A stretch of 64,000 nt of DNA, from contig CM119371.1 of assembly GCA_051294905.1 (NCBI GenBank), positions 5,024,001-5,088,000 of the forward strand, in the 5' to 3' direction. Shown here one piece after another: positions 3,521 to 63,347 of this stretch. Source of the stretch: Botryllus schlosseri. Lineage: Eukaryota. The notes under the pieces were generated by a model. The model worked only from the letters and a program-made list of their open reading frames with translations. It ran no database searches and had not been told where the DNA came from. Made by a program: the position numbers and the translations under genes. Each line of letters starts with the position of its first letter. The stretch's first letter is position 1.

Positions 3521-3598
3521 ATATACCGTAATTTTCCGAATATAGTGCGCCCCCATGTATAATACGCACCCTTAAAATGACGTGTATATTCTAGGAAA

Positions 3599-3765
3599 AA
3601 GCGTCATATGGATAAGCATGCTGGAATAAATCATACATGTGCTATATGTAGTAAAGTATTCACTGAGAAGGTTGCCCTCAATTTGAATATGGATAAGCAT
3701 GCCGGTATCATAAATGTGAAACTTTCTGAAACGGCCAACATCAAGCATCATATGGATTAACATAT
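3599..3765 (+). pseudogene. Truncated remnant of a family-2 zinc-finger gene (paralog of D)
   Basis: Translates to KRHMDKHAGI..HTCAICSKVFTEKVALNLNMDKHAGI. Downstream 3700-5360 is collinear with 28320-29465 downstream of D. Confidence 0.8.
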
Positions 3766-4446
3766 TGAGTTCGAAAGTCACGCAAGGTCAAGTGAAAAAA
3801 AGGTCTGAAGATTTTGAAATGACCTCCAGTACCAGTATTCTTTCAATGAAAACTCACTTTTGCCCAGAATATGTAATTATGATAAATCACCAATGTGCGA
3901 ATCTAGGATCACATAATTGGTGACTTATCGAATCTCAAAAAGTTGCAAATTCATAGCGATGCCGATTTACGTATATTTCACTCCTGGAGCTGGACATGAT
4001 CGGGAACATCAGTGAATGTATTACTACACGTCTCTGACTATCATTCTGTATGAGCTTACTTATTTTCCATGTACATTTTATGATATTCATGCAACCTATT
4101 GCATTAACAGTGGTCAATATGAAAGAGAAAACTATTGCTCAACATTTTTGAGTATTGATGTACATTTTTAACAAGCGTTCTACATTTCTTGAATATCGTC
4201 GTGATAGGTTTTTATTTGTGTGATTATCTTGCAGCCATTGCTAGCTCACAATTGCTTAGTTTATCCTATTTAGTGGTAGTTCTGTCTGTCTGATTCTCCA
4301 GTAATTTTGTACTGTTGTTCATTTGGAAAGCCAATCTTATTCCGATAAAATATGGTGAATGAGTTACTTGGTAATCAAATCCATTGAGTTCTGTTTTCGT
4401 TAGTCACTGATTTTCAAACATCGTTCGTTCGGACTTAATTGTGCAG

Positions 4447-5050
4447 TAGGGCTGTTCAAGAATAACTTTTTTTCCGGATTCCAGCCATTCACTGATTAAA
4501 TTGCCGGGTTACCATAACAAAGCCTGCATACCAAATTTGGTTCAATTCTTACAGGTCTAAGCTTCTGCAGAGCCAATTAATTTTTTTAATTTATTACGTA
4601 GAATTTAAAAAAAAGACATTTTTTTTGTCAACCCCATTAAATTGTCGAGTTATCTTCAAAAAGGATGAAAAACAAATTTGGCTCGATTCTAACCCGTAAA
4701 AGCTGAGGTATTTGAGTTTTTCGTTCATAATCCTCGGATTATCCTTGATCGAAGATAATCCGTTGATTATCAACTATAAACTCAAATAACTCCGCTTCTA
4801 TTGTTGGAATTGAGTCAAATTTGTTTTGCATCGTCTCTGAAGATAGCTCAATAATTTCAAGGGGCTGACAGAGAAATTTGAATTTTTTAAAATTTTACAT
4901 TATAAATTAGAAATTTTAATTGGATCTGTGGAGCCTTATCCTTGTGAGAATTGAACCAAATTTGGTGTGCGGCCTTTTTCAAGGTAACCTGACAATTTGA
5001 TGCCTGAATGGCTGGAATCCAGAAGAAAAAATTATTTTTGAACAGTACTA
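4447..5050. mobile_element. ~600-bp foldback (almost wholly palindromic) MITE
   Basis: The two arms are imperfect reverse complements about a centre at ~4748 (ggattatc..gataatcc). Flanked by TTGTGCAG / TTCTGCAG. Empty site TTGTGGAG at 29171-29178 in the paralogous block. Confidence 0.85.
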
Positions 5051-5125
5051 TTCTGCAGTTTCAACATCCAGTAGCTTGTATAAGTGTGCTGCCAGCATGC
5101 TAATGAACGATAATTCATTTTTCAG

Positions 5126-5324
5126 ATTAATTTGGTTTTGATTTCAAGATTATATCTTAAAACGTTTAATTTGCGGTGAAAGAGATCTCCAAATTAATTT
5201 GTGATGACTTTACTGGGAACTATTCACCAAATGTCCATTTCTTGGAGAAGGTGGATTTGCTAAAACCTCTAAACTCGCTGGAGTCGGAACAAAACAAGCT
5301 TTTGCTTGTTAAAATGTGCCAAAG
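5126..5324 (+). pseudogene. PLK1: Polo-like kinase 1 pseudo-exon (first kinase exon: glycine-rich loop to AGKIVPK region), copy 1
   Basis: KEISKLICDDFTGNY / (frameshift) CPFLGEGGFAKTSKLAGVGTKQAFAC*NVPK then GT. Compare PLK1 KEIPEVLVD...[31 protein letters not shown]. Confidence 0.85.
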
Positions 5325-24424: not shown

Positions 24425-26175
24425 GTCTAAACGATAGCAGATAATAGCCAAAGCCTGCGAGGCCCGCGAAGCGATAGTTCAAGCCAGCGACATCTTGCAC
24501 ACGACACCTATTACAGATGCGATTGAGGCACGTGATAGTTCTACATCAATGTTCAACGTAATGTTGTAATAACGCGAAGCTATAGTCTTTGTTCCGACAG
24601 TTCGGAATTGTTACTTTTGCACCGCAAACGCATTTAGGACTGCATTTTGAATGCGAGCCTAAGCCTGCGCCGGGCCACTGTTATTCACGTGATGTAATCG
24701 CACAAGCTCAAGCGTTAATTGGTATTTAACATCTCCACACCCCAAAATCATGGCAGGCAGTAGATATCATATTGATTTAGAACAAAATTAATCCAGATCA
24801 TGTGCAAAAACAGGCTGAACAATTGACACAAACGAAAACATTCATTTGTGTATCTTCACTGTTCGAGTGTTCGTACATGAGCGCAAAATGGAGAGATCTA
24901 CCAATGTGTTGTAATATGATCGGTGCGCACTTTCGTGATAACATCCTCGCTTTGTTAATTAAGGTCAAGATACCTTGCTGTCTCTCTTTATGCTGTTATC
25001 CTCGCTTACGGGTTACAATGTTATGTTCAGTTGTACTTAGTTTTGTATATGCGAATGAAGAAGTCACAAACAAGAGTAAGATTATCTGAACATGGTAATA
25101 TCTGCATTTCTGCATACATTTAAGCTGATCAATCGGTTAGAACTAGGAACAAACTCTCCTTTTAAAAACACCCCCCTATTCTAAAGGTACCCCCCGTTTT
25201 TTCCCGACTAGATACGCCCCTGCGCGTGCTGCAATCAAATGGCCTAATTTCGTCGCGTACAAACGGCCAACCAACTGAACAGTTGATCCGCTAACCGTTG
25301 TGCAGCGCAGACAGTACCGGTAATTGGCAACAGGCTTCTCGCTAATTGTCAACACGTCACACTAATAATACGAATTACGGGGCATTATGGCTGAATGTGG
25401 TGCGCAATTGAAACAGACACGAAGAAAGGTGTGATTTCAAGTTATATTTCGAAAAAGATTTTTTCGAGGCTTGCTGTAACCATGCATAATACCCACTCCC
25501 GATTTTGGACAAAAAATCAGGAAAATATTGCGCATTGGACATGGAAAAGTACGGTAGCTAGAAAAATTTTTTTTTTCAACCTATATGAAAGTAAAAAGCA
25601 GCATTGTTAATTGTGAACTTTATTACTGAAAAACTGCTTCAGGGCAAATTCATTGAAGCTGCTCAATGTTCATGGTCACAGGTACACATTTTGATGGTTC
25701 TTGGAAAATTTCTCTATTTGATTTGCAAATATGCACCGAAGTGCGCTATTGTCATTAGTCATTGTGTTTTTTTCTTGTGTTATCAATGATTTGTTACTAA
25801 AATGATCAAAACTTGATATACCAATCCAATAGTTCTATTGATGATGTCCTACTAAATGAAACAATAAGACTACCGGTACATTACAATGTTCATAATCTAC
25901 TCTCTCATTTGTGAAGTCATTTCCATGCTATCGATAGTTTTGTATGTTTGCACTCTATCCCGGTATCATGATTGCTCTTTCTACAATCTTATAATGCTCT
26001 TTGTTTGAAATAGTTCTACTCTCTTGTGCATTCCAGATGAAGCCATACTATAATTGAACAATGTTTATATGCTGAAATGATGAAAATCTGCGGGTCGCAT
26101 CTCTAGTGTCGTGAAGAAAAGCATTCTGTGGATCCAGTATTAACTGTTGATCACTTGAAAGAACGCCGATTCGAT

Positions 26176-27339
26176 ATGTATGGGAAAACGTTTACTGGGA
26201 ATAGTAATCTCAAGCATCTTATTATGCATGCTGACATCAGAAATGTTGAATGTGATGTATGTGGTAAAGCATTCACTCAGAAGTGTACCCTGAAGTTGCA
26301 TATGGATATGCATGCTGGCATCAACAATCATGTTTGTGATATGTGTGGGAAATCATTCACTGAGAAGGGTACCCTCAAGTTTCACATGGATAAGCATGCT
26401 GGAATCAAAAATCATGTTTGTGATATATGTGGTAAAACATTCACTCAGAAGGGCCACGTAAAAGAACATCTGGAGATGCATGCTGCGATCAAAAATCATG
26501 TTTGTGATATATGTGGTAAAGCATTCACTCAGAAGGGCCACGTAAAAGAGCATATGGAGATGCATGCTGGAATCAAAAATCATAAATGTGCTATATGTGG
26601 TAGATCATTCACTCACAAGGGTACTCTCAAGCGTCATATGGATATGCATGCTGGGATCAAAAATCATAAATGTGCTATATGTGGTAGATCATTCACTCAC
26701 AAGGGTACTCTCAAGCGTCATATGGATATGCATGTTGGGATCAAAAACCATGTTTGTGATATATGTGGTAAAGTATTCACTCAGAAGGGCCACGTAAAAG
26801 AACATATGGATAAGCATGCTGGAATCAAAAATCATAAATGTGCTATATGTGGTAAAGCATTCACTCATAAGGGTACTCTCAAGCTTCATATGGATATGCA
26901 TGCTGGAATAAAAAATCATACATGTGCTATGTGTGGTAAATCATTCACTGGGAAGGGTACCCTCAAGCTTCATATGGATATGCATGCTGGGATCAAAAAT
27001 CATGCGTGTGATATATGTGGGAAAGCATTCGCTCAGAAGGGCCACGTAAAAGAACATATGGAGATGCATGCTGGAATCAAAAATCATAAATGTGCTATAT
27101 GTGGTAAAGCATTCACTCATAAGGGTACTCTCAAGCTTCATATGGATATGCATGCTGGAATAAAAAATCATACATGTGCTATGTGTGGTAAAGCATTCAC
27201 TGAGAAGGGTACCCTCAAGCGTCATATGGATATGCATGCTGGGATCAAAAATCATATGTGTGATATGTGTGGTAAAGCATTCACTCGGTCGGGCTACCTC
27301 AAAGAACATATTAAGATGCATGCTGGTATCAAAAATTAG
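26176..27339 (+). CDS. Tandem C2H2 zinc-finger protein D (family 2, AGIKNH linker), 13 fingers
   Basis: ORF 26128-27339 with first in-frame ATG at 26176 and 13 CxxC-12-HxxxH repeats. It ends at a TAG inside the array, with degenerate fingers continuing to ~27725 and again at ~28280-28400. Candidate splice acceptor ttccag at ~26037. Confidence 0.85.
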   Translation: MYGKTFTGNSNLKHLIMHADIRNVECDVCGKAFTQKCTLKLHMDMHAGINNHVCDMCGKSFTEKGTLKFHMDKHAGIKNHVCDICGKTFTQKGHVKEHLEMHAAIKNHVCDICGKAFTQKGHVKEHMEMHAGIKNHKCAICGRSFTHKGTLKRHMDMHAGIKNHKCAICGRSFTHKGTLKRHMDMHVGIKNHVCDICGKVFTQKGHVKEHMDKHAGIKNHKCAICGKAFTHKGTLKLHMDMHAGIKNHTCAMCGKSFTGKGTLKLHMDMHAGIKNHACDICGKAFAQKGHVKEHMEMHAGIKNHKCAICGKAFTHKGTLKLHMDMHAGIKNHTCAMCGKAFTEKGTLKRHMDMHAGIKNHMCDMCGKAFTRSGYLKEHIKMHAGIKN

Positions 27340-29245
27340 AAATGTGCTATATGTGGTAAAGCATTCACTTAGAAGGGTAACCTCAAGCTTCATATGGATA
27401 ACCATGCTGGAGTCAAAAATCATGTTTTTGATATTTATGGTAAAGCAACCATTCATAAGGGCCACCTCAAAGAACATGTGAAGATGCATGCTGGAATCAA
27501 AAATCATAATATGTGATCAAGCGTTATATGGATAAACATACTGGCATCGAAAATCATGTTTGTGATATATGTGGTAAAGCATTCACTCAGAAGGACCACG
27601 TCAAAGAACATAATTATGGAGATGCATGCTGGAATCAAAAATCAAACATGTGCTGTGTGTTAAAGTATTCACTAAGAGGGGTAGGCTACCCTCAAGCGTA
27701 ATATAGATATGCATGCTGGCATCAAAATTAATTATTGTGATGTCCCGTAATTTCTCCAATATAATACGCCCCTACGAGGCTTGTGACGCGATAGTTAAGA
27801 CCAGTAACGATATCGTGTGCAAGATCCCTATCATAGATTCGATTAGTTGGGCCTATATCGTGCGAGCCAGGCATGTTGGAGATGCAATTGTTCAGGCCAG
27901 CGAATATATCTTGCACACATGTCCTGTTGGAGATGCGATTGTTCAGGCCTGTCGTTGACGCTATAAATTAGCGAGGAATGCCAGAGTGCGCGTGCAGCAC
28001 AATGGTTCTTGCTAATTGCCAGTGTGTAACATTTATAATACGTATTACTGGCACGATAGCTGAATGTGATGCGGGATTGACAACAAACATGCAGAAAGGT
28101 GTGATTTCAAGTTTTATTTCACATGATTTTTTTAAAGACCAATGCCTAATGTGCATCTCACGATTTTGCGCATTATACATGGAAAATTACGAAGACTTTT
28201 ACCAATGCGTAATGAACATCCCCCAATTTTGTGACAAATAACGGTAAAATTTTGCGCATTATACACATTGAATTACGGTATGTGGAAAAGCATTTACTAA
28301 CTGCAATCTTTATATGCGTCTACATGCTGGTATCAAAAATCATGATTGCGAAACTTCCTGCAACGGTTAACATCAAGCATCATATCCTCAATGATTAACA
28401 TGTTGAGATGAGTTCGAAAGTTTGATAAGTCTCGATCAAGTGAAAAAAGGTCGGAAGAATTCGAAATAACCTCCAGTACCGTTATTCTTCCAATGAAAAA
28501 CTCATTTTTGCCTAGAACATGATCAGTCACATCAACAATCTGCTAATGTAAGAAGGCATACTTGGTGACTAATCGAATCTGAAAGAGTTGCAAAGTTGTA
28601 GAGTTGCCGAATTGTGTATATTTCAAGTAAACAACTGGAGCTGGACATGATCGAGTACTTGAGTGATTTGAGTCGTGCATGATGTAGCTAACTCAGCTTT
28701 GTTTCGCTGCTAGCAGTGCTAAGTGATTGCCTTGAAGAGTGAACGTATTACTACATCTCTCTGGCTATCATTCTGTATGAGCTCGCATATTTTTCATGTG
28801 CATGTTATGATACTCATGCAACCTATTGCATTAACACTGGCTAATATGAAACAGACAACTATTGTTCTACATATTTTGAGTATTGATGTACAAGATTTGT
28901 TAACAAGACTTCTACATTTCTTGAATGTCGCTGTGATCAGTTTTTGTTTCCTTGAAGATCTTTTAGTCATTGCTAGCTAGTAATTGCTTAGTTTATCCTG
29001 TATAGTGGTAGTTTTGTCTGTCTGATTCTTCAGTAATTTTGTACTGATGCTCATGTGGAAAGCCTATCTGATTCTGATAAAATATAATTAATGAGCTGCT
29101 TCGGAATCAAATCCATTGAGTTGTGTTTTTGTTGGTTTCTGATTTTCAAATGTCGTTCGTTCTGATTTACTTGTGGAGTTTAAACATCCAGTAGTTTGTG
29201 GAAATCTGGTGCCAGCATGTCAATTTACGATATTTCATTTCGCAG

Positions 29246-29435
29246 ATTGATTTGGATTTGATTTCACAATTATGTCTGAAAAAGTACGAAAGAGATCTCT
29301 GAATTAATTGTGTGATGACTCTACTGGGAACCATACAAGCGAGGTCCATTTCTTGGCAAAGGCGAATTTGCCAAATGTATTAAACTTACTGAAATCTGAA
29401 GAAAACAAGCTTTCGCTTGTTAAAATGTGCCAAAA
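29246..29435 (+). pseudogene. PLK1: Polo-like kinase 1 pseudo-exon (first kinase exon), copy 2
   Basis: KEISELIV..DSTG..YKRGPFLGKGEFAKCIKLTEI*RKQAFAC*NVPK. AG acceptor at 29244-45, candidate ATG at 29272, donor mutated. Confidence 0.88.
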
Positions 29436-29938
29436 TTGAGTCGTCTTATTGGCACTATAGAATATGTGTGAATGCTAATGTATTTTTCACCTGTACTAAT
29501 ATAATTTTGTAAATACTCTTGTGAAAACAAATGTGGGAAAGACCTTGAAATTTGCCATTTCTACATGCTTTTTATAACTAGAGCTAGCCCGACTTCGGAT
29601 TTTTGAGCCAATACCGATGAAATTGATACCTCAATATTCTTCTAGATTAGGCCATATTTTAAAAAATGTAACAGCTTCACAGTCATTTTTATGCCTGGAC
29701 ATGGAATAAACTAGAAAGTCTGCATATGGACACTTGTAAGATATAAGGAGGCTATCAATATTTCCTGTGTAGCAGTCGCGGGGTGTCTGTGACCACGTTG
29801 CGCCCGCGCAGAAATTATCGATATTTTTTGCCTCTCATAGCCGATGCCGATATGTTTTGTGATATCTATGCGGTGTTATTGGCAAACCTATCATGGGCAG
29901 GGCAATAAATGCAAGCATTAATCTGGCGTTCATTTCAG

Positions 29939-30070
29939 GCACTTCTAGGGAATAAGCCTCGTAAAGAAAAAATGTGTCAAGAGACCAGTCTCCATAGCAG
30001 GTTGAGCAACAAACAAGTCGTTCGATTTGATGGATTTGTGAAAGAAAAGAATATTTTCTATATGTACTTA
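29939..30070 (+). pseudogene. PLK1: PLK1 pseudo-exon (alphaC/hinge exon), copy a, 3'-degraded
   Basis: tttcag|ALLGNKPRKEKMCQETSLHSRLSNKQVVRFDGFVKEK versus PLK1 [36 protein letters not shown]. Confidence 0.8.
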
Positions 30071-31050
30071 ATCAAGCAATTGTACCTGATTTCATAAATA
30101 ATTTCGAGAATTACCTCGCAGGCCACACCTAACCTTCTCGTGTGCCAAATTTAGCCTGCGTGCCATGGGCTGGCCGCACCTTATCTGTATGTTTATTAAT
30201 AACAGTGATTGGTGGTACATAAAAATTATATTGAAAATTTTTTAAAAGCAAATGTTTTCATGATAGAGAAGTCGGAGTCGAAGTCAGGGTCAATCTCACA
30301 AACTCCGAGTCCAAGTCCAGTCATTATTTTCCCTCCGACTCCGGCTATTATAGTTTTCACGACTCCGACTCCATCAAGCGAAAATTACACAGACTCCGAC
30401 TCCACAGCCCTGATTCGGACACTTATAAGATATAAAAATATATTAATATTTCCAGTGTAGCAGTCGCATATGATAGTTCTCTGACTCATTACTACCATGC
30501 TGTGACATCATGGATATTGCCGATATATTTTCCCTCGTGGCTGATACCGATATTTCTCTTCAAGTCTTATATCAGTACCCAGTAGGCGACTGATTATATT
30601 TGTCGCATGCATCAATGCCATTTTTTGATAATATTGTAAATTGCCATTCTTGAATGCTTATTATAGCTAGAGTATGACTAATATGGGATTTTAAGCCAAT
30701 GCCGATAGAACCGTTACCCATAGCACCTTCGCCCATAACTTCGATATTCTACTAGCTTGGGGACATTTCAAAAATATAGCGGCTTCACAGTCATTTCTAT
30801 GCTAGGACATGAAATAAACTAGAAAGGATGCATCCGGACACTTATAAAATACAAAAACATATTAATATTCCCAGTGTAACAGTCGCATATGATAATTCTC
30901 TGACTCCTTACTACCATGCTGTGACATCATTGCCGATATCTTTTCCCTCGTGGCTGATACTGATATTTCGCAGTACCCAGTACGATATTTTCGGCGCACT
31001 TATAATGGGTCGCGCTTTGATTACAAGCATTAATGTCGTGTGAATTTCAG

Positions 31051-31199
31051 GTACTACTCGTGAATGAGCATCATAAAAGCAAAATATGTCTAGAGGTCCT
31101 TCTCCATAGCATTGTGAATCACACGCACGTCGTAGGATTTCACGGATTTTTCGTATACAAAGATTTTGTCTACATCGTTCTCGAATTTGCAAAAGACGG
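31051..31199 (+). pseudogene. PLK1: PLK1 pseudo-exon (alphaC/hinge exon), copy b
   Basis: tttcag|[45 protein letters not shown](-1 nt)CKRR|gtaaa. 149 nt, one base short of in-frame. Confidence 0.88.
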
Positions 31200-31862
31200 G
31201 TAAAAGGTTTTCCTTGTTATTTTTACAAATTTAGTGTGTATTACACTGTTGGTCATAATTCCATCAGTTCTCTCGGTTCATTAGTGACGGATCTGGTCAA
31301 CTAGAAATTTCTAGAAGTCACATTAGATATGGCAATCGCAAAATGCCGGTAATCTAATTCCAATCTAATTTGTCAAATGTTTCTCCCATTGTAATTTTAA
31401 TCTAATTTCTGTTTTTTTTCTGAAAATGCTACAGGAGAACTGTTTAGTGCATAACCATAGTGTCCTATATGGCTATATGGTGTCGACACAGGAAAATCTC
31501 ACGCCTCAGTGAAATTGTATCACGTCACAATTTCCATTTGGCTACAGGCAATTTGACAGTCATTTTTGAACGGCTTGCCGAGCAGCAAATTTGGTAAAAC
31601 GGGTATCAATCGAAAGCTGACTCTGCACTGAGTACGAAACTATTAATTTTATTCCGCTCGTGGCCCTGGAACTCCCGCAAACAGCCTTGAATTTTTCATT
31701 GTTATGGAGATTGACATTGGGAGGCAACAATGCTGTCTGGTGAAACGAGAGAGTAGCTCAAGAGAAAAAGAGAATAATTAGAAATAGAATTAGTCAGAGA
31801 AAGACGTAGTTAGTTGCTCGCCACCGAACTAGATTGGTGATTTGTACGAGTCTCGATTTCAG

Positions 31863-32002
31863 GAAATGATCGTCAGAAATAGAAAATGTGTCGAGAGATG
31901 AGTCTCCATCGCAGTTCCAATCACGAGCATGTCGTTGGATTTCACGGATTTTTCCAAGACGAGGATTTTGTCGACATCGTTCGCGAGTTGTGCAAAAGAA
32001 GG
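31863..32002 (+). pseudogene. PLK1: PLK1 pseudo-exon (alphaC/hinge exon), copy c
   Basis: [42 protein letters not shown]|gtaaa versus PLK1 [41 protein letters not shown]. Confidence 0.92.
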
Positions 32003-33224
32003 GTAAAAGCATTTTCTTGATACAACTGTAATGTTTCTCAAAGTGTTGCGCAATTGCATCAGCTCTGTAATGTTCATTACTGGCGGACTTTGGACAACTA
32101 CATACTTCTTGTCTAATCAACCTAAATGGAGCCAAATATTGGTAATCTTGTGAGAGTCTGATTTGTCAATGCGTTTACGGCACGTCCGCAGTTAAATTTT
32201 AATGCAATGTCTGGTGTTCCTAAAATGCTACACGAGAACTGTATCGTACGAAACGAGCCAAGCTTCATGTGTAGACATTTGGTATTGGCGTGTATATAAG
32301 AATAATCCCAGATGTGATATGAACTGACACCGTATTTTTGTACAAATTCTTTGATGAAATGATTAATTATAATATAGTGGAAAGACTTGTGTAGGGTGTA
32401 GCTATCACTGTAATTCTAGTCCAATTTGAAAAAAAAAACGTGTTTAGCTATTATTGTAATTCTAATCTAGTTTCGAACAGCTGAAAATTCTCTAGTTGCA
32501 CAATTCCGACCACTAGGGGCTTGTCACAATGAATGTGGTATTCGAATCTGAATTGAGTAAATCATATTAATCGAGTCTGGTAGTGAAAACGATTTTTTAT
32601 AGTACTGAAATGATACCCTTTTTGCCACAAGAGGTGAAATGATTAAAAACAAACTGAGATTAACTGGGAGTGAATTTATCAATGAGAATTATAGTTTCGA
32701 TACTATTTTCAACTGTTGAAAGCTGTAAACCTCAATTTGCAGTATCACGGCATATGAAGTATGTAGTACAAAGTTATGCACGTTACTAGAAATGATATAT
32801 CTGTGACGTCGTGATCAATCACAGCATTGACAACATAGTGCAATGAAATAGGCGTGGTCGAAAATAGACAAATTGTCTTTAATAAGATGTAGGACTGGCA
32901 GTATATTGTTTGTAGCAGCGTGAACGGTAGTCCACATATTTGAATTTTCTCATCAACCATGCTGGTATGGCACCATAATAAGTAATACTCGAATACTCGA
33001 CTCGAAGCCTACTACTCGAGTCAATTTCAAATCAGTAAGGTTGTCAAATATCAAAAAGGCAGCATGAAATGAAGTTTTAATTTGGAACGTTCATCTGCGC
33101 AAAAAAATTGCTGTCGGATTTTACTGGCCCGCTAGCTCAAAAAGGGTGGGAACTGCTGATTTAGATGTTGCAGCAAATGCTTTTAGTTTTTTCATCCTGT
33201 CAATCCTTTAATATATATTGCCAG

Positions 33225-33350
33225 TCGCTGATGGGAGTTTACAAAAGATGGCGCCCCATCACAGAACCAGAGACTCTTTCTTTCATGTAGCAGATTGTGC
33301 TTGGAGCCGTTTATCTTCATCACTGTAAGATCAGTCACAGAGATATTATG
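33225..33350 (+). pseudogene. PLK1: PLK1 pseudo-exon (alphaD/alphaE to HRD exon), copy a
   Basis: cag|SLMGVYKRWRPITEPETLSFM*QIVLGAVYLHHCKISHRDIM|gta, 126 nt. Compare [42 protein letters not shown]. Confidence 0.9.
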
Positions 33351-34061
33351 GTAATATTGCTTGCATTTGACTAGGTCAGAGGTCATCAGTAGCGAAGTAC
33401 TTTTACATTGTCATGGTCAGACTTGGACAACTAAATATTCATAGCGGAGTTATCTAATAAAACTAATTGGAGCGAATGTCTGAAATCTAATTCTATTATA
33501 ATTTGATAAGAGTTTCTATACTCTCAATTCTAATCTAATTTCTGGTTTTCCTGAAATTGCTACAGGAGAACTATGTAGCGCGAAAGGAGACAAACTTACT
33601 GTACAAACATTTGTCATCCTCGTGCCCATGAGAATGAATTCTGATTTGATATGAACTGAACTTGATTCCATGTCGCAAGGTTTCACGAAATCAGTTGTTA
33701 TAAAAACTGTGTAGCTTGTATTTTAATTCTAATCTAATATGGAAAAGTAGCTATCATTCTAATGCTGATCTGATTTGGAAATAACTGTGTAGATATCATC
33801 ATAATTATGTTCGAATATGGAAATTAACTCTGTAACTGTAATGCTGATTCTAGACTGATTTAAAAAAGCTGAAAATTTTATAGTTGTATAAGTCTGCGAA
33901 TCTGCTTATCCTGATACTTGAATCTTTTTCTATCCAAATACAATTCCTGATTGGTATTCTAGTTTGAATTCACAAATCCCGATAGACAAACAATGTTATG
34001 AAAATGTTAGTTACTATCTGTGATTTTTTTCATATCTGTGATCTTCTCATTAGAATGTTAG

Positions 34062-34206
34062 AAAACGGCTCCTGTAAAGGAAGTGCGGGCGATCAAGTAT
34101 TTCAACGGCTCCATTCCTCAGAAACTGCCCATAACCTGATTGCCAATGGCGCCTAGAATTTCGGAAAGCCAACTACAGCAAAGGCGTCTTCTCCTGAGTT
34201 TCAACA
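34062..34206 (+). pseudogene. PLK1: PLK1 pseudo-exon fragment (kinase C-terminal extension / interdomain linker)
   Basis: VKEVRAIKYFNGSIPQKLPIT*LPMAPRISESQLQQRRLLLSFN|gtgagt versus PLK1 [24 protein letters not shown]...RKPLTVLN. TGA at 34137-39 replaces the Cys codon. Confidence 0.75.
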
Positions 34207-34786
34207 GTGAGTTTTTTCGTAAGTCTTGACAAAATCGAGTTCCTGATTTATTAGATTCTGAATGGAGTATTATGTTACGAGTCGCGTGCTCGAGTCTCAT
34301 CATAACTAGAGCCCGACACGACAGATATCTTATTTTTGAGCCAATACCAATATGTAGCACCTTCACCGATAACCTCGATATAATCGACTTCTATTGAAAT
34401 AATATGGAAACTAGCTTAAGACATATTTCCAGGCCTTCATAGTATTTATTTGAACCACTGTGCGGGCGTTGCTATACTTGGACATGAAATAAACTAGAAA
34501 GAATGCATCTGAACGCGTGTAAGCAGAGTCAGTCAGTAGCAATAGTACCTTTACTTTTACAGAGTACTCGATAAGGTTTTGCCTCGCGGCTTCACCATTA
34601 TTAGTAGTGACGACTCGGAGACGGCTGCAAGAACATCACACAACGGAAAACCGATATCATGATTCATGACAAACAAAGACACATGTTTTCTTGTTGATCG
34701 CCAACTAAAATATTTTTACATACACAACTAGAACTAGAATTACTCACTTTTTAAGATCCGCAACTAAATCTAGTATCTAATTTCAG

Positions 34787-34935
34787 GCATTGCTTGTGAA
34801 CAAGCATGAGGAAGACAAATATGTCAAAAGATCGGTCTCCATCGAATTTTGAATCACAAGTACATCGTTGGATTTCACGGATTGTTCCAAGACAAGCATT
34901 TTGTCGACGTCGTTCTTGAGTAGTGCAGAAGAAGG
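34787..34935 (+). pseudogene. PLK1: PLK1 pseudo-exon (alphaC/hinge exon), copy d
   Basis: tttcag|[47 protein letters not shown]|gtaaa, with a frameshift and a stop. Confidence 0.9.
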
Positions 34936-37049
34936 GTAAAAGTATTTCCTCATTATAGACTTGATGTACCTCTAACTGCGACGATCAAAAATGCATTAGA
35001 TCTGTCATGCTCATTACCAGCAGACTTGGATAACCAGATCACTATTTTTCTATAATGTATTGGGCTAAATATGGCAAAGTACTTGTCATGTAATTCCAAT
35101 CTAATTAGTCAACTAATTCTTTATATATAGTGTGAAACAAGTCAAGATTGGTGAACTATTCTCATGCTTATGATAATCAAGTCCGAATTGACATGAACTG
35201 AACTTGATTTCTTTTCCCAACTAGGTAAATAAATTCTAATCTACTTTTAATAATGTGATCATTTCCTAGTGACACAACTATGATGACTTGTGCTAGGCAC
35301 AGTGATTCGATGATTCAAATCTGAATCGAGTATCAATTCTGATCATTTGAGTCGAGTAGTCGGAAATGATTGTTTCGAGTGCTGAAAATATACGCTCCAT
35401 GCCTCAAAATTGAAAAATTATACTTACTATGAGCTGAATTGAACCACTGGGAATTATATTTCTCACTGTGAAAATCTGTGAACATTGATTGGTCGTATCG
35501 CAGTATACGAAACATGTAGTACAAAGCTATGCACGTTGCTGAAACGCACATGTAGCTGTGAAGTCGTGACATGTAGGCTAAGATAGATGATTTTGGCCTG
35601 AATACCAAATCAACTTCATGAGGCCCACACAACTATATTGCCCCTTAAAATCTCGGCAACAAGGGACGCAGTTTTGAAGCAAACAACTAGTAGTTGGGTT
35701 GTGTTTTGTGCGTGTAATGCAACATTGAACTGGGACTTCATAAAAGTAGGTTACATATGTCTTGAAGATAGCGTTTTGCAAAATCGAGTACCTGAGTGAT
35801 TTGGTTATTACTCGAGACGAATATCCGAGTATCTCTCATGACGTCATAACATTATGAATGATTATGTAATGTCCAAATATTCACATTTTATATGATCGCC
35901 ATGCAGGGTTTGTAACCAAGTCACAAGGTCCCGAGTCGCAAGGAAATCTCACTTTTGTAGTTTTGACTTGAGTCCAGTTGAGTCATTTTTAATTCACCAA
36001 CCAGTCAAGTGCAAGTGAATGAGTAGATGGGCGAGTCCAAGCCCAAGTGTTGTGGCTGGAGTCCGAGTCCAAGTCATCATGTTAACTGTTGAGTGTTGAG
36101 CTCAAACTGATTCAAACCAATTTTCAACTCTGCTCGAATGATATAGAATTGCACACATTCATAACACCGTATTCCCCCTCAGACCTAACAGTTTCTGACA
36201 GACCAATTACCAATCTTGTGGTGATTTTAATATTCTTTGAAGTTATAATGAGCTGTCTGTCTTGGCCATCCTAGTCATATGTCTTGGTTTGAGTCATGCA
36301 CAATGACTCGAGTACAAGTCGTGTCAATACATAAGTTGACTCGAGTCGTGTCACTAGAAAATTAGGACTCGTTTTGAGTGATGAATCTAGCCATCACAGC
36401 CCTGCCACTGTGAATATAATGTCGGTACTACATCTCATTATAAAGATAATTTAGTCATTTTCGACCATACCTATTTCACTGTACTTTGTGACAATGCTGT
36501 GGCTTGATCACAATGTAGGCAATACCGCATATCGAGTTTTACAGCCTTCCACAGTGGAAATGCCATTGAAACTATAATTCTCATTGATAAATTATGGTAA
36601 CTGTTAGGGACAACAAGTGTATATTTTCAGTAAATATACGGATATAGCGACACGATATCAACACTAAAATACCATGATTTTTTCAGCATTTTGTCTATTC
36701 ACCCATCTCAACGACCTTCCGTGAAGCCAGTTGTCTCCAGCTACTTTGTGAAAGCCTACATACCTCAAAAACTACCGACCATCTGCTTGCCTATCACAAA
36801 TGTCAACGCGAGACAATCTTAACCGGTGAGATTTTTACGCATCAAGTTAACAATTAGATCTTGACCAAAACCAACCAACGCGAAAAACAATTTATTTTAT
36901 CGTTTATAAATTTTCACATGTTCATGGGAAGCATTGGTTTCATGGGGATCACTTCTCGATGTGTGGAGAATAACGAAGAAGTGCCCCCTTTTTAGCTCGC
37001 TACTGGACTACGAGCGGTGGCACTGCCACACATGCTGTGCATTACGCTT

Positions 37050-51188: not shown

Positions 51189-51989
51189 ATATTAACCCTA
51201 ATTATCAATTCCGTCAGATCATGACGTCATTCCTTTGTGACGTCATCGAACTCGCATACCTAAGGAAAATTAGCGTTCGGCGCCTATGTCGCCAGAGGGT
51301 AATGCCACTCAGATTTTGGTAGTGGTCATAAACGTTGAAGAACTAGTGGTCTCCAAAAGATTGTCAAAGACATTCCTCTGTAGGCTAGTGCTATCGGAGC
51401 TGGTGTTTACTGCGACCAATGCCATGGCGCCTACTCCGAACCAGATATCCGTCCCTAATCGCCTGGCCTAACCGGGCTTACAGTGTATCACTTGTTCCAG
51501 AATTGTTTTGAATCTTTTATTCAGTCATACCGGTGAATTGTTGAAGGCATAGTAGATTAACAGTTTCGTGTCTTGTAGCTGAAATCTATCGAACGATCAA
51601 GTTGAAACCTGAACGTCCCAAATGTTCAATTGCAGCCAATATCTGAAAGGGAATCGGGAATGAAATTGTGATCTACAAAATATGTGCGAAAACATGTATG
51701 AGGAACTACTCGTCTGACTTGTGAGATTGCAGATCATCACAATGCCCAATAATACCACTAAACTGGTAATATTAGATGATCAATTTGATATTCTTGGATA
51801 TTGTTATTTATCACACTGCTCTGTTTTTGCTAATTCTTTCTGTATTTCAGATTGGGTTGCTATAATATAAGAATTATAATACTGTGTAATAGCTCATTTC
51901 ATGCTGTCATTGAATACTCGTTTTCAAGCAGAGAGCGGTTGATGTGTCATGCTTGAAGAAGTAAAGTAATATACAGATAATCCAGAAGA

Positions 51990-53180
51990 ATGACAAGGAT
52001 GATGTGCTGGATCTGTGGAAAGAGCTTCCATCGTAAGAATGGATATAAAGCTCACTTTCTATTCCACCTTATAGATAGAAATACCGAATGTGAGATCTGC
52101 GGAAAAATCTTTGCTGCAATCACTTTATTGAAAAAACATTTGATATCCCACAACTTTTCGAAAAATCATGAACGCAAGGGCATTGGCAAAGAGTATAATC
52201 CGATCGATCACTTGAAAAGACATGCGGATAAACGTACTGCTCACCTTGGAGTCAGAAGCCACGACTGTGAGATCTGTGGAAAGTCGTTTGTGCGGGTTGA
52301 CGCCCTGAAAACGCATGGAAATATACATACTGGAGTCAAAAACTATGAGTGTCGGATCTGCGGAAAAGCGTTTTTTCGGCTCAGTAACTTGAAAACACAT
52401 GAGAATATACATACTGGAGTCAAAAACTATGAGTGTCATATCTGCGGAAAAGTGTTTACCCAGCTTGTTGACTTAAAACGACATGAAAATACGCATACTG
52501 GGGTCAAAAACTATGAGTGTGAGATCTGCGGAAAAGTGTTTATTCTTCTCAGTAACTTGAAAACCCATGAGAATATACATACTGGAGTCAAAAACTATGC
52601 ATGTCAGATTTGCGGAAAAGCGTTTAACCAGCTTGGTGAATTGAAAACACATGGAATTACACATACCGCGGTAAAAAACTATGCATGTCAGCTATGTGGA
52701 AAAGTTTTTGCCAGGCTTGGTGATATAAAAAGACATGGAAATACACATACTGGAGTCAAAAACTATGCATGTCAGATTTGCGGAAAAGCGTTTACCCTGC
52801 CTGGTAACTTGAAAAGACATGGAAATACACATACTGGAGTCCAAAACTATGAGTGTCAGATCTGTAGTAAAGCGTTTAGTCAGCTCAGTAACTTGAAAAC
52901 CCATGTGCATACACATTCCGGAGTCAAAAACTATGCATGTCAGGTCTGCGGAAAAGCGTTTACCCGACTTGTTAACTTGAAAGAGCATGGAAATACACAT
53001 ACTGGAGTCCGAAACTATGAGTGTCAGATCTGTGGTAAAGCGTTTAGTCAGCTCAGTAACTTGAAAACCCACGTGAATACACATTCCGGAGTCAAAAATT
53101 ATGCATGTCAGACGTGCGGAAAAGCGTTTAACCGGCTTGGTAGCTTGAAAAGACATAGAAATACACATGCAGTAGAGTAG
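51990..53180 (+). CDS. Tandem C2H2 zinc-finger protein C (family 1), 396 aa, 13 canonical fingers
   Basis: Intact ORF with the same N-terminus as A and B (MTRxMCxICGKSFHRK). It keeps the terminal finger and stop (HRNTHAVE*) that is out of frame in A and B. Same upstream acceptor, ending at 51850. Confidence 0.92.
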   Translation: MTRMMCWICGKSFHRKNGYKAHFLFHLIDRNTECEICGKIFAAITLLKKHLISHNFSKNHERKGIGKEYNPIDHLKRHADKRTAHLGVRSHDCEICGKSFVRVDALKTHGNIHTGVKNYECRICGKAFFRLSNLKTHENIHTGVKNYECHICGKVFTQLVDLKRHENTHTGVKNYECEICGKVFILLSNLKTHENIHTGVKNYACQICGKAFNQLGELKTHGITHTAVKNYACQLCGKVFARLGDIKRHGNTHTGVKNYACQICGKAFTLPGNLKRHGNTHTGVQNYECQICSKAFSQLSNLKTHVHTHSGVKNYACQVCGKAFTRLVNLKEHGNTHTGVRNYECQICGKAFSQLSNLKTHVNTHSGVKNYACQTCGKAFNRLGSLKRHRNTHAVE

Positions 53181-54414
53181 CGGAACTTGTATCTTTTTAT
53201 TCTCGCGATGATGATCTCGAATATGAAGCAGTAATATTGACAGGAACACCTTATACTAAAATATGCTGTTATTTAGAGTGGACGTCCATTCAATCTGCTA
53301 TCATATCAATACAATTTAATATTGGGTTCAAATCTGTACGAGTACTCAACACATACCGTGTGTCTTTGAATCACCTTTCTGGCTAAATGATTTCTGTGCC
53401 GGGTGTGTAGAAATGGTGGTGTGGTGGTGGTGAACTTGTATCTTCATGTTGCAACGCCTCTGGCCCATGTACATTTATCACTGCCACAATAAAATTTCTG
53501 TATACGTTGTTTTTCTTGCCTAATATTTTTCAGTTTTAAAATGTCTCTCCTAGTTTCATATTTTAATTACAGCATAGGATCAGTGCCTGAAAATTTGTTT
53601 CTCACTGCCTGAATCAGTTTCAATGAACACCTACTTGTGATAATTTGCGCTGGGTCTATTGTTCAGAGAAGTTTGAAGGTTATGTTCAAGTCTTTGTATC
53701 ACAGTACTAATACTATAGTTTATGTCACCTAAATTTTAAGCTTCGTGTGCATTATCCTGCGTCATATTCTCTGGTAATTAGCAGTCTGTGCATATCGTTT
53801 TCAATTTCGTTTCAAATTGTAATGTTGTGGCCATTTTGTAAATATGTGTTTCTTGCCATCAATTTCATGCAATTTTTCGACATTTTCACTTCCTCGTGAG
53901 ATTTCTATTCGTTCATATTTAATCATGGAGCTGCAATAAGAAGCTCCTTGTCGTCTGATATGATGTTCTGTCAGCTTTTTGCTAGTAGTATCTCCTAATT
54001 CCAGCAGTATGCAGCATCCTTACAAATACGACGTGAAGTGGATCCCCTTATGATTTGTGACACCGGTGATTAGCATATCATTGATCGCAATCCTTTGTGA
54101 TGATGTGATTATTAACAGTCAGCCGCAGCACATATTATATTTATTCTGTTTCGCTTTGAAATATATTGAATATCTGATCAATTCTGTGTGTATTTCTGTT
54201 ATACACTCGCTGCATCTTGTCAACAATATCGTTCCTACATGAGATTTTGTTTCGTTCAGATTATTTGTAATTCATAGACAGTACTACAACACTGCACAAC
54301 AGTGCTCCTTGACTTGTTTTGTTTGATGAAACCTTGAAGCTGATATGACGAACTCATGAACCCTGTTTACTAAAGAGGCAAACTGAGGTAAATTGTGATA
54401 TGAATAATCAGTGA

Positions 54415-55271
54415 TAGGGCGATTTTTTTCGACCTGTCGAAATTTGTCAAAATTGTTCACAAAGTCGAAAAATTTTTGACGTATGCAGTTCGTTTGTATC
54501 ATAGATTTTGCACTGTTGGTGAACTTATCATTTGATATTTTACAACTTGTAGCCTACTTTATAGGCCTTCCGTTGTAAACGGCCAATTGTTTGCTCATTG
54601 TGAATTATTAACGGTCAAATAAAACAAATAGGTAAACATGGTGTTATGATCAAGGTACCGCAATATCCTAACTGAAGAAAGACTTCTTGGGCATTGCATC
54701 ATTCTTATATTAAGGAGCGCATCATTCTTATATTAAGGAGCACATGATGAAAAATTGTTATGTAGACTACATTTTCAGAATGAAGCAACACGGTGTGTCA
54801 CCAACAGTGTACGCAGCCAACAACTGCTGCTGTTGAACGTTCTTTCTCCATTCTTAGCAAGCGTCTTAGTAAGGAAATGCACTTTCTACCCAAAGATGTA
54901 GGAAAGTATCTCTCGTTTTATTTTAGTTGTATACTACAAATTTTAATTATTTCTACCATAATACGTATTGTAACCACTGGAATTTTTCATAGGGCCAGAC
55001 TTCGTTAAAATATTAGTTTTGTCATGTCAAAATTTGCCTGTTTCCAAGCCAAAAACGTTTTTTTCATGCCAAACTACTTCGTTAGGACAGCCAGTTCAAA
55101 CTAGAAATGAAAATAAGTGGTACAGTTTTAACATTACATGGAAATACACCTAGTTTGCATACGCTAGGTCAAAATTTGGTCACAATTCAGTTTTGTTAGG
55201 TCGAAAAAAGTCAAAATTTTTATTTTTTGGGTCAACATTTTCTTTTTTCAGGTCAAAGAAAAATCGCCCTA
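54415..55271 (+). mobile_element. Internally deleted hAT transposon with dimerisation-domain remnant
   Basis: TIR TAGGGCGATTTTT / AAAAATCGCCCTA. The internal peptide TQPTTAAVERSFSILSK (ORF 54793-55008) matches the hAT C-terminal dimerisation motif. Absent at the paralogous sites ~14290 and ~22870. Confidence 0.85.
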
Positions 55272-56972
55272 ATCATTAGGCATATCAATTGAACTACCCA
55301 AAGCTACCGATATTACAGACACTGCTGGCGAGAGATTGATTATAGCTGCGGGCTGTACGGAAAATCACTTTTGGTCTGTGGTTTCACCTCTGTGCCACCA
55401 GACCAGATATTTATGGTTTAATTCGTGACGGTTGCTTCTCCAAGAACTCAGCAGCTGTAGAGCAAAACTAATGTCACTCCCTAGCCAACGTGATTGGGTA
55501 AGGAATAATATTACGCATAAAACTTGTAATGAATAATTGTACTGGCAACAGAGCACTAATCTTCTGTGGCAATCCGACACTATGGGGGCACATATTGGCT
55601 CAAAATCGTCATTCCCTGTTACTTTGATCCTATGCAAATTGCGAGCTACATAGAATGCCCTTTCGGAAGAAGTGTACAGAGCACTATGAAACATTGCGCC
55701 ATAGTAGAACTGTGATAGTTTTTGGCTGTCTGTCAATTGCATCACCTTAACCAGTGGCTCTCAACTGCAAATTTCCAGGCCTGTGCCAGTCTGCTTTAAC
55801 TTTTCAGTCGGCGGAACAAATATATATTTGATGTATTCGTAATCGCAAAATGTAAGAGGTGGGAGTCTTGTTCATAAATTATAGAACAAGAACACAGCCT
55901 TCATTTTTATCCGTCATCGCAGTGCTGCAATCGATGCAGCGATCTGTTTGAAAGTACCCAGAAACACGTTTATTAAGAAAAAAACATCACTTCATGTTCA
56001 GGCGTGCTTGGAACGAGATGTTTGATTATGGCTTAGGGTCAAAATTGGCTCCGTACATACTATTGCTTAAAAAAATGGCCAAAATGTCGATTTCAGATTG
56101 CATAGCTTTTGCTGGTCGGAATCGACCAAAATTTGGTATGTAACGTTGTTAGGCGACCTGACAATGTCATCACTCTGCGAGTGAAGTGTAAAAAACGTTA
56201 CAGCCATTCTGTAACAGCAGTTACGAGGGGATTGTTCAACCACCAATGTCTCATTGTTATTGAACGAATAAAATCCAGTAGATGAGATTTTGAGTCAGTC
56301 GGCAGTTTTGTCAACTTGTAAAGATCATACAGACAGCTTGTTATTTCTAGAAACAACGTGTTTTCGAACTTGATCCTTTATATCTAAAAATAGCCCTTCT
56401 ATGCCTTGCGAAATTGTGTTTTGTGCAGGGTTGTAATGACTCGAGTCACGATTTTGTGACGACTCGACTTGACCCAGTCATGTTTTCAAAATACGGAAAT
56501 GATTCGACTCGACATTGAGTCAATTTGTGCATTGACTCGAGTCATTGCGCATGACTCGAACCAAGTCATTAAACTCGACGCCAAAGACCGACATTTCATT
56601 GTTATTCAGAACAATAGTAAAGTAACCACACTATATTAGGATTACGTTTATTGGTCCTGGTACTTGAAAATGCGACCAGACACTGCTAAAGGTTGAGGAA
56701 ATAAGGATATTGTACGTGTAATATTGTTTAAAGGGCAGAATGATTTTGTTGTTTCTGTCTATTTTTTTAAACATGCTATATAATACCACATTTGAATACA
56801 ATGTAAATACAAATATCATGCAACTAGAGCTACAACTCGATCGATACTCACAACAAGAACTAGAACTACTCACTTTATGAAATGTGCAACTACAACTACA
56901 ACTACTCAAAATAACAGTAATCAGTCGACCATCAACTAATTCTATTAAAATTTGTACATGTCCAAATTTCAG

Positions 56973-57110
56973 GCACTTCTTAAGAATGAGCAATGAGCAT
57001 GTTAAATACAAAATGTGTCAAGAGATCATTCTCCATTGCAGTTTGAATCACAAGCACGTTTGATTTAAAGGATTTTTGTCGACATCGTTCTCGAGTTGTG
57101 CAAAAGACGG
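56973..57110 (+). pseudogene. PLK1: PLK1 pseudo-exon (alphaC/hinge exon), copy e
   Basis: tttcag|ALLKNE..KYKMCQEIILHCSLNHKHV*FKGF..VDIVLELCKRR, with an internal deletion and the donor lost. Confidence 0.85.
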
Positions 57111-57980
57111 ACAAGCGTATTTCCTCATTACAACTGTAATGTATATCTAACTGTAGTGATCGCAATTACATCAGATTTGTAACGTTCATTAGCGAGCCCA
57201 CTTGGACAACTAGATAATCCCAGTTGCCTAATTAAGACTTATTATAGCCAAATTCCGGTAATCTAATAATATTCTAATTTGAGAAATACTGTCATTTTAA
57301 TTCTAATATAATTTATGGGTTAACTGAAAATGCTGCAGGAGAACTGTATAGTGCGAAAAGAGTCGATTTTGGTGTACAGAGACTTATCATTCTCTTGCTA
57401 TGAAAATGAACTGTTATTTGGTATGAAGTGATTTGGTTTTTATTGCATTTGTTTTACGAATTAAATGATTCTAATCTAATTTCGATAACTTGTGTAGCTA
57501 TAACTTTAATTGTAATCAAGTTTAAAAAATTTCTCGTTACCCAACTCTGATCACTAGATCGCGACCGATATCGTATTTTTAAGCCAAAACCGATAAGTAG
57601 CACCCTGGCCGTTAACCACAATCGGCCGATATTGAAATGAAATGGCAAGTAGCTTAACACATATTTCCAAACCTTCAGAGTATTTAGTTGGCCAACGTTA
57701 CATTTGAACAACTGTAAGCATGGTCAGTCAGTAGCAATAACACTTCTACTTTTACAGAGTACTCGTAAGGTTTTGCCCCGCGGTTTCACCATTATTAGTA
57801 GTGATCACTCTGAGACATCTGCAAGAACATCACACAATGGGAAACCGGTATCATGATTTACGACAAAGGAAGACACATGTTTTGTAGTTGATCGGCAACT
57901 AAAATATTTTTACATGCACAATCAGAACTACGGTACTCACTTTTTAAAATCTACAACTAAATCCAGTACCTGAATTTCAG

Positions 57981-58129
57981 GCATTGCTTGTGAAGTAGCA
58001 TGAGAAAGACAAATGTGTGAAGAGATCAGTCTCCATCAAAGTTTGAATCACAAGCACGTCATTGGAGTTCAGGGATTCTTCCAAGACTGGGATTTTGTCT
58101 ACGTCGTTCTTGAGTTGTGCAAAAGAATG
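57981..58129 (+). pseudogene. PLK1: PLK1 pseudo-exon (alphaC/hinge exon), copy f
   Basis: tttcag|[48 protein letters not shown]|gtaaa. Flanks 57720-58790 are collinear with 34520-35560. Confidence 0.9.
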
Positions 58130-59179
58130 GTAAAAGCATTTTGTCGTTACAATGTAGTATACTTCTAGCTGTGCCAATCGAAAATGCATTAGATCTGTCA
58201 TGTTCATTACTAGCAGTCTTATGCAACCATAAAATTATTGTTCTATACCGTACTATATTAGGCTAAATAGGGCGAAGTACTTGTAATGTAATTCTAATCT
58301 AATTAGTCAACTAATTCTACACATATAGTGTGAAACGAGTCAGATTGGTCAACTGTTCTCATGCTTATGATAATTAAGTCCGATTTGAAATGAAAGGAAA
58401 TTGATTTCTTTTCCCAACTACGTATTTGTAATTCAAATCAAATTTGGAAAAATGTGGTTATTATAATTCAAATTCTAATCTAGTTTGGATAATAATGTGA
58501 TATTTTTCTAGTTGCACCATTGCGATTTCTAGGGCTGAGCATAATGATTTGATGACTCAAATCTGAATTGAGTATCAATTCTGATAATTTGAGTCGAGTA
58601 GTAGTAAATTATTGTTTCGAGTACCGATAATATACACTCCATGCCGCGAAAGGGAAAAATTATATTAACAATAAGCTCAACTGAACCGGTGGAAATTATA
58701 CTTTCGATAATATTTCTCACTGTGAAAAGCTGTAAACCTTGATTGGTCGTACAGCAGCAGACAAAACATATAGTACAAAGCTACTCGCGTACATTGGAAT
58801 GGCATTTCCGAGTAGTCGTGATGGAATAGGTATGGTCATAAAAGTGCCACATAATCTTTATAATGTGACTAGAATCTGCATTATATTCTTTGTGGTGTTG
58901 CTGTGACGTTTACACGAGTGACTCAAACTCATTACTTGATCAAAATCAGATCAGTCGCACACTCTGTTTTGGCCAGCACTATTTATTACATGTTCGATTT
59001 CAAAAAACAAGTATTAAATGAAGTTTCTAGTTGGGAAGGTTCACCGGGGTGCAAAAACTGTCGTCAAGTTTCACTGTCCCTCAAACACAGAGAGGTTGAG
59101 AAACACTGATTTAGTGGCATCCAACAAATAATATTTTTTTCATTCCAGCAATCCAATTACCTTATACTTTTGTTGTCAG

Positions 59180-63222: not shown

Positions 63223-63347
63223 TGGCCGATGGATCTTGAGAAAGAAGACGAGTCATCGCAGAAGCAGAGACTCGATCTTACTTGCAACAGATTCTGGTTG
63301 GAGTCGTTTATATTCACGGCTGTGCGATCATTCACACGGATATCCAG
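63223..63347 (+). pseudogene. PLK1: PLK1 pseudo-exon (HRD exon), copy d
   Basis: RRRVIAEAETRSYLQQILVGVVYIHGCAIIHTDIQ|gtgac, 125 nt (frameshifted). Confidence 0.85.

Follow-up and report, generated by a model that had tools for sequence, protein, structure and literature searches.

Gene content of the locus

The window, that is, the whole 64-kb stretch of DNA that was analysed, holds the zinc-finger (ZNF) genes A, B and C (family 1) and D (family 2), with 13–18 canonical C2H2 fingers per frame, as well as 15 clear and two weak PLK1 fragments interleaved with the ZNF genes (Table 1). With tandem canonical fingers in several neighbouring paralogues, the locus is a poly-C2H2 zinc-finger gene cluster. 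D and C are 44% identical. Neither KRAB nor any other effector domain was found in the ZNF array ORFs, that of D included, in a search that covered these ORFs. The N-terminus of the D open frame is degenerate and directly preceded by an in-frame stop; the D protein matched generic C2H2 proteins at no more than 50% identity, with no orthologue, among 120 matches listed of 4517. The fingers of D are mostly of two repeated types (QKGHVKE and HKGTLKx) and the varied contact residues belong to family 1, a correction to an earlier note on this DNA, which had made hypervariable arrays the partner of PLK1.

Table 1 Features of the window, with positions counted from its first letter
Feature	Position	Strand	Details	Basis
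Truncated end of TACCGTA-type inverted-repeat transposon	3524..3602	.	Left border of module copy 1	89% to far end of full element 5987-6691
Family-2 ZNF remnant	3599..3715	+	About 1.4 broken finger units, last finger without first His	Up to 84% to D units
Spacer, copy 1	3716..5125	+		82% and 85% to spacer copy 2
PLK1 first coding exon, copy 1	5126..5324	+	Start codon lost, 1-nt deletion, TAA at K82 (5310-5312), donor GT retained	Alignment, translation
ZNF D open frame	26107..27339	+	13 canonical C2H2 fingers (26251-27321)	Finger count, translation
Decayed 3′ fingers of D	27340..28345	+	About six units	Translation
Spacer, copy 2	28346..29245	+	Ends in AG acceptor 26 nt upstream of ATG	blastn and alignment to copy 1
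PLK1 first coding exon, copy 2	29246..29435	+	ATG (29272) out of frame, 1-nt deletion, TAA at K82 (29421-29423), private stops, donor GT to TT	Alignment, translation
Scrambled PLK1 pseudo-exons behind D	29939..36795	+	Exon 2 three times, exon 3, late-kinase piece (weak), exon 2, exon 4, late-kinase piece	Homology search
Family-1 ZNF C (ORF 51981-53180) and 3′ block common to A and B	51981..56174	+		Sequence comparison
Second PLK1 pseudo-exon run	56973..63916	+	Exons 2, 2, 3, 4, 3, 3, 4; no spacer or exon 1 at start	Homology search

A ZNF tail, a spacer and PLK1 exon 1 occur twice

A ZNF tail, a spacer and PLK1 exon 1 are present at 3599-5360 and again at 28258-29470, both on the + strand, collinear and 80–85% identical, and three collinear blastn blocks link the two copies (E = 2e-59, 2e-136 and 3e-63). 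The recurrence, common orientation and co-duplication proposed in the earlier note are thus borne out. Its description of a module composed of a ZNF gene and a PLK1 first exon holds for the duplicated segment and fails for its content, as the partner in copy 1 is not a gene and neither exon 1 codes. Likewise, the exon-1 ATG does lie 1933 bp past the TAG of D, in agreement with the gap of about 1.9 kb given there; however, this TAG interrupts the array as a nonsense codon, and the decaying fingers continue beyond it to a last finger, split by a 520-bp transposon (about 27745-28264), that ends about 930 bp upstream of the ATG.

In copy 1, the ZNF remnant sits behind the transposon end, the spacer carries a palindromic (foldback/MITE-like) insertion of about 600 bp (4442-5057; 78% identity between the insertion and its reverse complement), and exon 1 is followed by transposon and intron-type DNA without exon 2. 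Capture of the module by a transposon was considered and rejected, as the element end at 3524 lacks a counterpart that would enclose the module; the full transposon (5987-6691) stands alone in DNA homologous to 2198-2979. Judged by eye, the spacer resembled a decayed minus-strand ORF; no Pfam family was found in the nine spacer frames searched (copy 2 in six frames), and a 22-nt spacer word had no match in metagenome contigs.

The same note had also placed PLK1 exons from 56973 behind gene C. An exon 2 does begin there, 3793 bp past the stop of C, yet a third module was rejected, as exon 2 comes first with neither spacer nor exon 1. The 3′ block common to C and A ends at 56174, ahead of any PLK DNA, and PLK exons lie behind only one of the three family-1 genes.

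Both PLK1 exon-1 copies were disabled before duplication

Exon 1 of copy 2 found PLK1 as its best PDB matches (E = 9e-7). In both copies, an identical TAA replaces the codon of the catalytic lysine (K82), a position at which 39 of the 40 motif-carrying representatives (150 examined) have lysine; a further set with lysine in 17/17 was put aside, since the search pattern had forced that residue. Both copies also show 32 nt instead of the expected 33 nt upstream of the glycine loop, a common 1-nt deletion; in all 10 representatives found with a pattern open to 3–9 residues, six residues precede the loop. Two further changes at pattern-free positions are common to both copies and absent in 17 representatives. 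Because the K82 stop and the 1-nt deletion occur in both copies, the kinase was dead prior to duplication. Private lesions were added to these, namely loss of the ATG in copy 1 and a 10-nt deletion, extra stops and a dead donor in copy 2; the acceptor AG was retained in both.

The 24 differences in the 102-nt exon-1 core are spread 8/8/8 by codon position, and exon 1 is no better kept (80% identity) than the spacer (82–85%). Splice sites, introns and spacer were all copied along with the PLK1 exons. With PLK1 homology accompanied by introns and flanks, disabling lesions, and neutral divergence over few sites, the exon-1 copies fit the description of duplicated (unprocessed) pseudogene fragments. 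Furthermore, each of the three phases from the exon-1 acceptor meets a stop within 25 codons, and a protein-coding ZNF-PLK chimera is therefore excluded at both copies.

Similar decay was seen in the exon-2 copies. All six are off-length or without a donor, and those at 34787 and 57981 show the same dead-then-copied pattern, since they have one 1-nt deletion in common. One exon-3 copy (about 59180-59305) still has an uninterrupted frame and retains its two splice sites, with HRD reading YRD. No Polo-box exon was found in the window by six-frame phmmer with the C-terminal halves of P0231 and P0234 (nothing better than iE 0.14), a search that heavily decayed exons could escape; Polo-box-like words near 40500-41000 were unsupported by the same search and were discarded. 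A homologue search with an exon-2 piece returned no candidate. How much PLK1 debris lies in this part of the chromosome is still odd.

Transcription across the spacer and exon 1

In the single-cell run X21, a sense-strand RNA peak lies on the 3′ part of spacer copy 2 and exon 1: over 28652-29493, reads oriented like those of the ZNF array reach depths of 16.9 and 16.5 and reads of the opposite orientation 0.2 and 0.47, and the next bin drops to 0.25. Passenger DNA may here have been reused as a 3′ UTR, with transcripts of family-2 ZNF genes (D or, more likely, a paralogue) crossing the spacer and ending within the dead PLK1 exon or close to it, without coding for PLK. We regard this reading, which is compatible with passive co-duplication, as a tentative possibility on the doubtful side. 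In its favour, exon 1 of copy 2 contains an ATTAAA at 29379, and the DNA run X1 has additional contigs resembling the spacer (281 nt, 42 differences) as well as two contigs without the extra base of copy 2 at 29308. However, copy 1 is without this ATTAAA, and no pile-up of molecule ends over the peak was seen among those listed. Only 23 of the 8070 placed X21 reads are at least 99% alike, and the peak may come from a copy other than the D locus. Against the reading are also a depth of 0–0.6 over the region in the bulk run X23, a depth of at most 0.1 over the 5′ part of D (bin 25705-26125) in both raw-read runs, and a 3′-capture library chemistry that was deduced from which strand the ZNF reads lie on. 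Run X5 gave near-identical contigs across the spacer and exon 1, unspliced through the dead donor; they were not counted as expression because upstream intergenic DNA has similar depth and they are possibly DNA.

Ascidians have operons and spliced-leader (SL) trans-splicing. The junction might preserve the layout of the live PLK1 locus, with a ZNF gene directly upstream; the acceptor 26 nt before the ATG would serve an upstream non-coding exon or SL trans-splicing of a ZNF-PLK1 operon. The short distance from ZNF to ATG (about 930 bp) and the acceptor retained in both copies would suit such a layout, which we nevertheless consider unlikely: only dead copies are seen, the junction could equally well be a duplication breakpoint in the 5′ intron of PLK1, and no loose end at 29245 was present among 24 listed (4381 more exist). 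No ZNF-PLK splice joint was found among 15 listed of 1247 joints. It is still less probable that a live arrangement exists elsewhere, of which the dead modules would be fossils, with a family-2 ZNF co-transcribed with an intact PLK1 in an operon or through a shared 3′ UTR/5′ region; if so, the linkage would explain the amplification of PLK1 alongside a fast-evolving ZNF cluster.

Discussion

The repeat of ZNF tail and PLK1 exon 1 is very probably the result of hitch-hiking in a duplicating zinc-finger cluster, that is, ordinary duplication debris in which the PLK1 copy was dead before the segment was copied. Hitch-hiking was one option raised in the earlier note, and it is supported by kinase lesions that predate copying and by an exon that diverges like the spacer. 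The common spacer shows that the first coding exon of a PLK1 copy lay about 0.9 kb downstream of a family-2 C2H2 gene. As the lesions common to both copies show, this PLK1 copy died first, through the stop at the catalytic lysine and the frameshift. The junction was then copied as DNA, introns and spacer included, amid repeated segmental and tandem duplications, probably by unequal crossing-over, and the same duplications multiplied the ZNF genes and PLK1 exons in the region. Afterwards, both copies decayed neutrally and gained transposons. If selection operates in the region, its most likely target is the ZNF arrays, and PLK1 DNA would be carried as a passenger.

That A and B carry the 3′ block of C without PLK behind was counted for passive co-duplication. 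Counted against it were the open exon-3 copy, the X21 sense peak, the acceptor AG in both exon-1 copies and the Nei-Gojobori dN/dS of the exon-1 core, which was 0.51, though from small numbers (8 synonymous and 16 non-synonymous changes over few sites) and with a six-frame spacer control of 0.43–1.13.

The earlier note had also raised a selected reader-plus-kinase system. In Caenorhabditis elegans, HIM-8 and ZIM-1/2/3 recruit PLK-2 through binding of its Polo-box, which recognizes S-[S/T]-P, to phosphorylated S-[pS/pT]-P/X motifs on these ZNF proteins (according to the available part of PMC8432353). By this model, ZNF arrays would label sites on the DNA and a Polo kinase amplified along with them would dock to the arrays; the physical linkage, common orientation and varied contact residues of family-1 arrays could be taken in its favour. 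However, the module is linked to family 2, which is less variable than family 1, the ZNF partner in copy 1 is a remnant, and docking between proteins should require no gene linkage. Neither exon-1 copy can belong to a catalytically intact Polo kinase given the K82 stop, which with the frameshift predates copying, and no Polo-box exon was detected in the window. S-[S/T]-P was absent from all five ZNF array frames, which do not include the 5′ exons of the genes, for a motif that permits X for P. At the two module copies, the reader-plus-kinase reading is contradicted, and we consider such a system in general scarcely credible. Compared with the part of PMC8432353 available, the likeness is a pairing of zinc finger and Polo kinase in name only: in the window, a dead kinase is present, the search for a Polo-box exon found none and the array frames are without S-[S/T]-P.

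Closer parallels exist among duplicated genes. Mouse KZFP clusters arose by segmental and tandem expansion of poly-C2H2 genes (PMC5363842, in part) and, as here, show ZNF genes and pseudogenes in clusters that grew by duplication of large segments, with finger triplets repeated inside arrays and surroundings rich in transposons. In contrast to these clusters, as far as the same partial source describes them, the array ORFs here have no KRAB or effector domain found, the passenger is a kinase pseudogene, and the gene structure is of invertebrate type with more PLK1 introns. In Daphnia pulex, POLO-F to POLO-K are partial PLK1 copies read as pseudogenes or partial-duplication remnants, some of them transcribed (PMC2680839, in part). 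Like them, the PLK1 copies here are truncated, rearranged and stop-bearing; unlike them, the exons are multiplied, scrambled and interleaved with ZNF genes, and the portion of PMC2680839 available mentions no ZNF linkage. Nothing relevant on ZNF-PLK1 co-duplication or chimeras was found in the literature searched, from which most subscription papers were missing. The co-duplicated ZNF tail and dead PLK1 exon is a further case of a known phenomenon, a pseudogene fragment in a segmental duplication.

The locus offers a clean case of a dead piece of a gene that was taken along as a zinc-finger cluster expanded, in which the common K82 stop fixes the order of events as death, then duplication. Annotators should be cautious here and build no ZNF-kinase fusion models at these loci.

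RESULTS

Self-comparison of the window matched the two copies of a ZNF tail, spacer and PLK1 exon 1 that the earlier note had described (copies 1 and 2) in three collinear blocks, with ungapped identities of 82% (287 sites), 85% (430), 80% (96) and 80% (148, the coding part), a repeat far beyond chance. Exon 1 was identified as PLK1 by a search of solved structures and also by tblastn with 149 of the 150 fetched kinase representatives (P0152 was excluded for its repeat-type hit). Further relatives of the spacer and exon 1 were present in the DNA run, whose summed depth does not equal copy number; the ZNF/PLK1 junction thus likely exists in more than two copies.

The family-2 gene D has a 410-codon open frame with 13 canonical fingers, in whose helices two repeated types predominate, and a degenerate N-terminus with an in-frame stop just upstream. 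Its TAG at 27337 sits in a linker, and about six decayed units continue to 28345, so the true gap from the ZNF array to the PLK1 ATG is ~930 bp rather than the ~1.9 kb given previously. The ZNF part of copy 1 retains ~1.4 units, the last without its first histidine, and is joined to a truncated transposon end; its spacer carries a 600-bp palindromic element.

Both exon-1 copies carry TAA at the position of K82 of P0138, the ATP-binding lysine; lysine occupies this position in 39 of the 40 motif-bearing representatives (150 examined). The stretch from the conserved Asp to the glycine-loop region measures 32 bases rather than 33 in both; six residues intervene there in 10 of 10 matching representatives. 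Two more substitutions, R to P and E to K, occur in both copies and in none of 17 representatives. These common lesions would most simply be explained by inheritance, and because both copies carry them, the kinase was dead before duplication. Private lesions arose later: copy 1 lost its ATG, and copy 2 has a 10-nt deletion past the ATG, an extra base, more stops and a donor changed from GT to TT. In both copies, all three phases meet a stop within 25 codons of the acceptor. The 24 differences in the 102-nt exon-1 core fall 8/8/8 by codon position, and its dN/dS of 0.51 is below 1, yet within the 0.43-1.13 span of six spacer frames; exon-1 decay is neutral-looking.

Fifteen fragments of PLK1 exons are clear in the window (two of exon 1, six of exon 2, four of exon 3 and three of exon 4), in scrambled order and all on the + strand, in agreement with the orientation noted earlier. 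Every one of the six exon-2 copies has an aberrant length or no donor, and no Polo-box exon was detected in the window. The open frame amid this debris that ends in a PHD finger (Pfam PF00628, E 1.5e-4, 22 bits, under the 24-bit cut-off) is possibly a transposon tail.

PLK1 exons do lie behind the family-1 gene C, past 56174, but they are not the copied module, and C was rejected as a module copy. A 3' block that C has in common with genes A and B, which have no PLK behind them, runs to 56174, followed by repeats and a PLK1 run that starts with exon 2, the spacer and exon 1 being absent. Since PLK-type DNA lies both upstream and downstream of C, the C unit sits amid PLK debris. The likeness of A and B appears to stem from a recent event of duplication or conversion, coupled with rapid turnover of the arrays, and family-1 finger variation follows a PRDM9/KZFP-like pattern.

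Features of the window
Feature	Position	Strand	Remark
Block: ZNF tail and spacer start	3599-5360 vs 28258-29470		E 2e-59
Block: spacer	3599-5360 vs 28258-29470		E 2e-136
Block: PLK1 exon 1 and 5' flank	3599-5360 vs 28258-29470		E 3e-63
Exon-1 TAA	5310-5312; 29421-29423		
TACCGTA-type transposon	~27745-28264		Splits last decayed finger unit of D
Spacer, minus-strand reading	28339-29180; 3700-4450	-	In places resembles decayed protein-coding sequence; no Pfam match
Weaker late-kinase pieces	34065; 36688	+	
PLK1 exon-2 copies	34787; 57981	+	Within common 1.2-kb block; one deletion in both
PLK1 exon-3 copy	~59180-59305	+	Frame open, both splice sites present; neighbours broken
PHD frame	36910-37314	+	134 codons, open, amid PLK debris; PHD finger at end
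Exon-less blocks	1274-3518; 5893-7580; 39992-43229		Mutually related (68-78%), partly akin to PLK intron DNA; 42929-43229 inverted
PLK-intron-like DNA	41068-43229		Upstream of C
Intronic repeat pieces	31342-31383; 32222-32265; 33526-33572		Widespread, transcribed repeat family; hundreds to >1600 partial RNA reads, other loci
A/B 5' regions	9566-10088 vs 19007-19529		98.5% identical; 3' flanks 94%, arrays ~87%
Family-1 arrays	9911-11851; 19352-20827; 51981-53180		Frameworks near-identical; residues -1, 2, 3, 6 varied
In-frame stop splitting A	~10277		
Upstream block, B vs C	18011-18732 vs 43552-44265		86%; in C, ~7 kb other DNA before gene

RNA was surveyed over 23600-36200 at 85% likeness in 4 of 24 listed runs, two raw runs being sampled at 6% and 3%. 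Among the 15 joints listed of 1247, there was no GT-AG joint from ZNF to PLK or between PLK exons. In neither raw run did depth in the D 5' bin exceed 0.1; array reads may thus come from paralogues. The single-cell run peaked at ~17 over 28652-29493 in the orientation of the ZNF reads (opposite strand, 0.2-0.5; next bin, 0.25), with only 23 of 8070 reads at least 99% alike; depth over this stretch in the bulk run was 0-0.6. The peak is possibly a transcript 3' end, its source probably a paralogue. Reuse of the spacer and dead exon as a ZNF 3' UTR, to which the peak and its orientation point, is a tentative reading compatible with passive co-duplication.

DISCUSSION

HIM-8/ZIM recruit PLK-2 through binding of its Polo-box to an S-[pS/T]-P/X motif that is phosphorylated (PMC8432353). 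Here, in contrast, the kinase is dead, no Polo-box was detected, and the ZNF array frames searched, upstream of which the 5' exons would lie, have no S-[S/T]-P motif; the functional reader-plus-kinase system on which the earlier note had speculated is thus unsupported and extremely improbable. The junction is unlikely to be a relic of an active locus where ZNF and PLK1 were neighbours or formed an operon. Mouse KZFP clusters are described as growing via segment duplication (PMC5363842), and partial and rearranged PLK1 pseudogenes are described in Daphnia (PMC2680839); our literature search found nothing relevant on ZNF-PLK1 co-duplication or chimeras.

The observation in the earlier note was confirmed in part, and its hitch-hiking option is supported by kinase lesions that predate duplication and by neutral-looking decay. 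A ZNF tail was linked to PLK1 exon 1, the kinase had died before duplication, and the junction was copied at the DNA level, probably by segmental duplication or unequal crossing-over within a ZNF cluster rich in repeats; the copies have decayed in a neutral-looking manner. The junction is thus very probably a product of passive co-duplication, in which PLK1 DNA would have been a passenger in the ZNF cluster.
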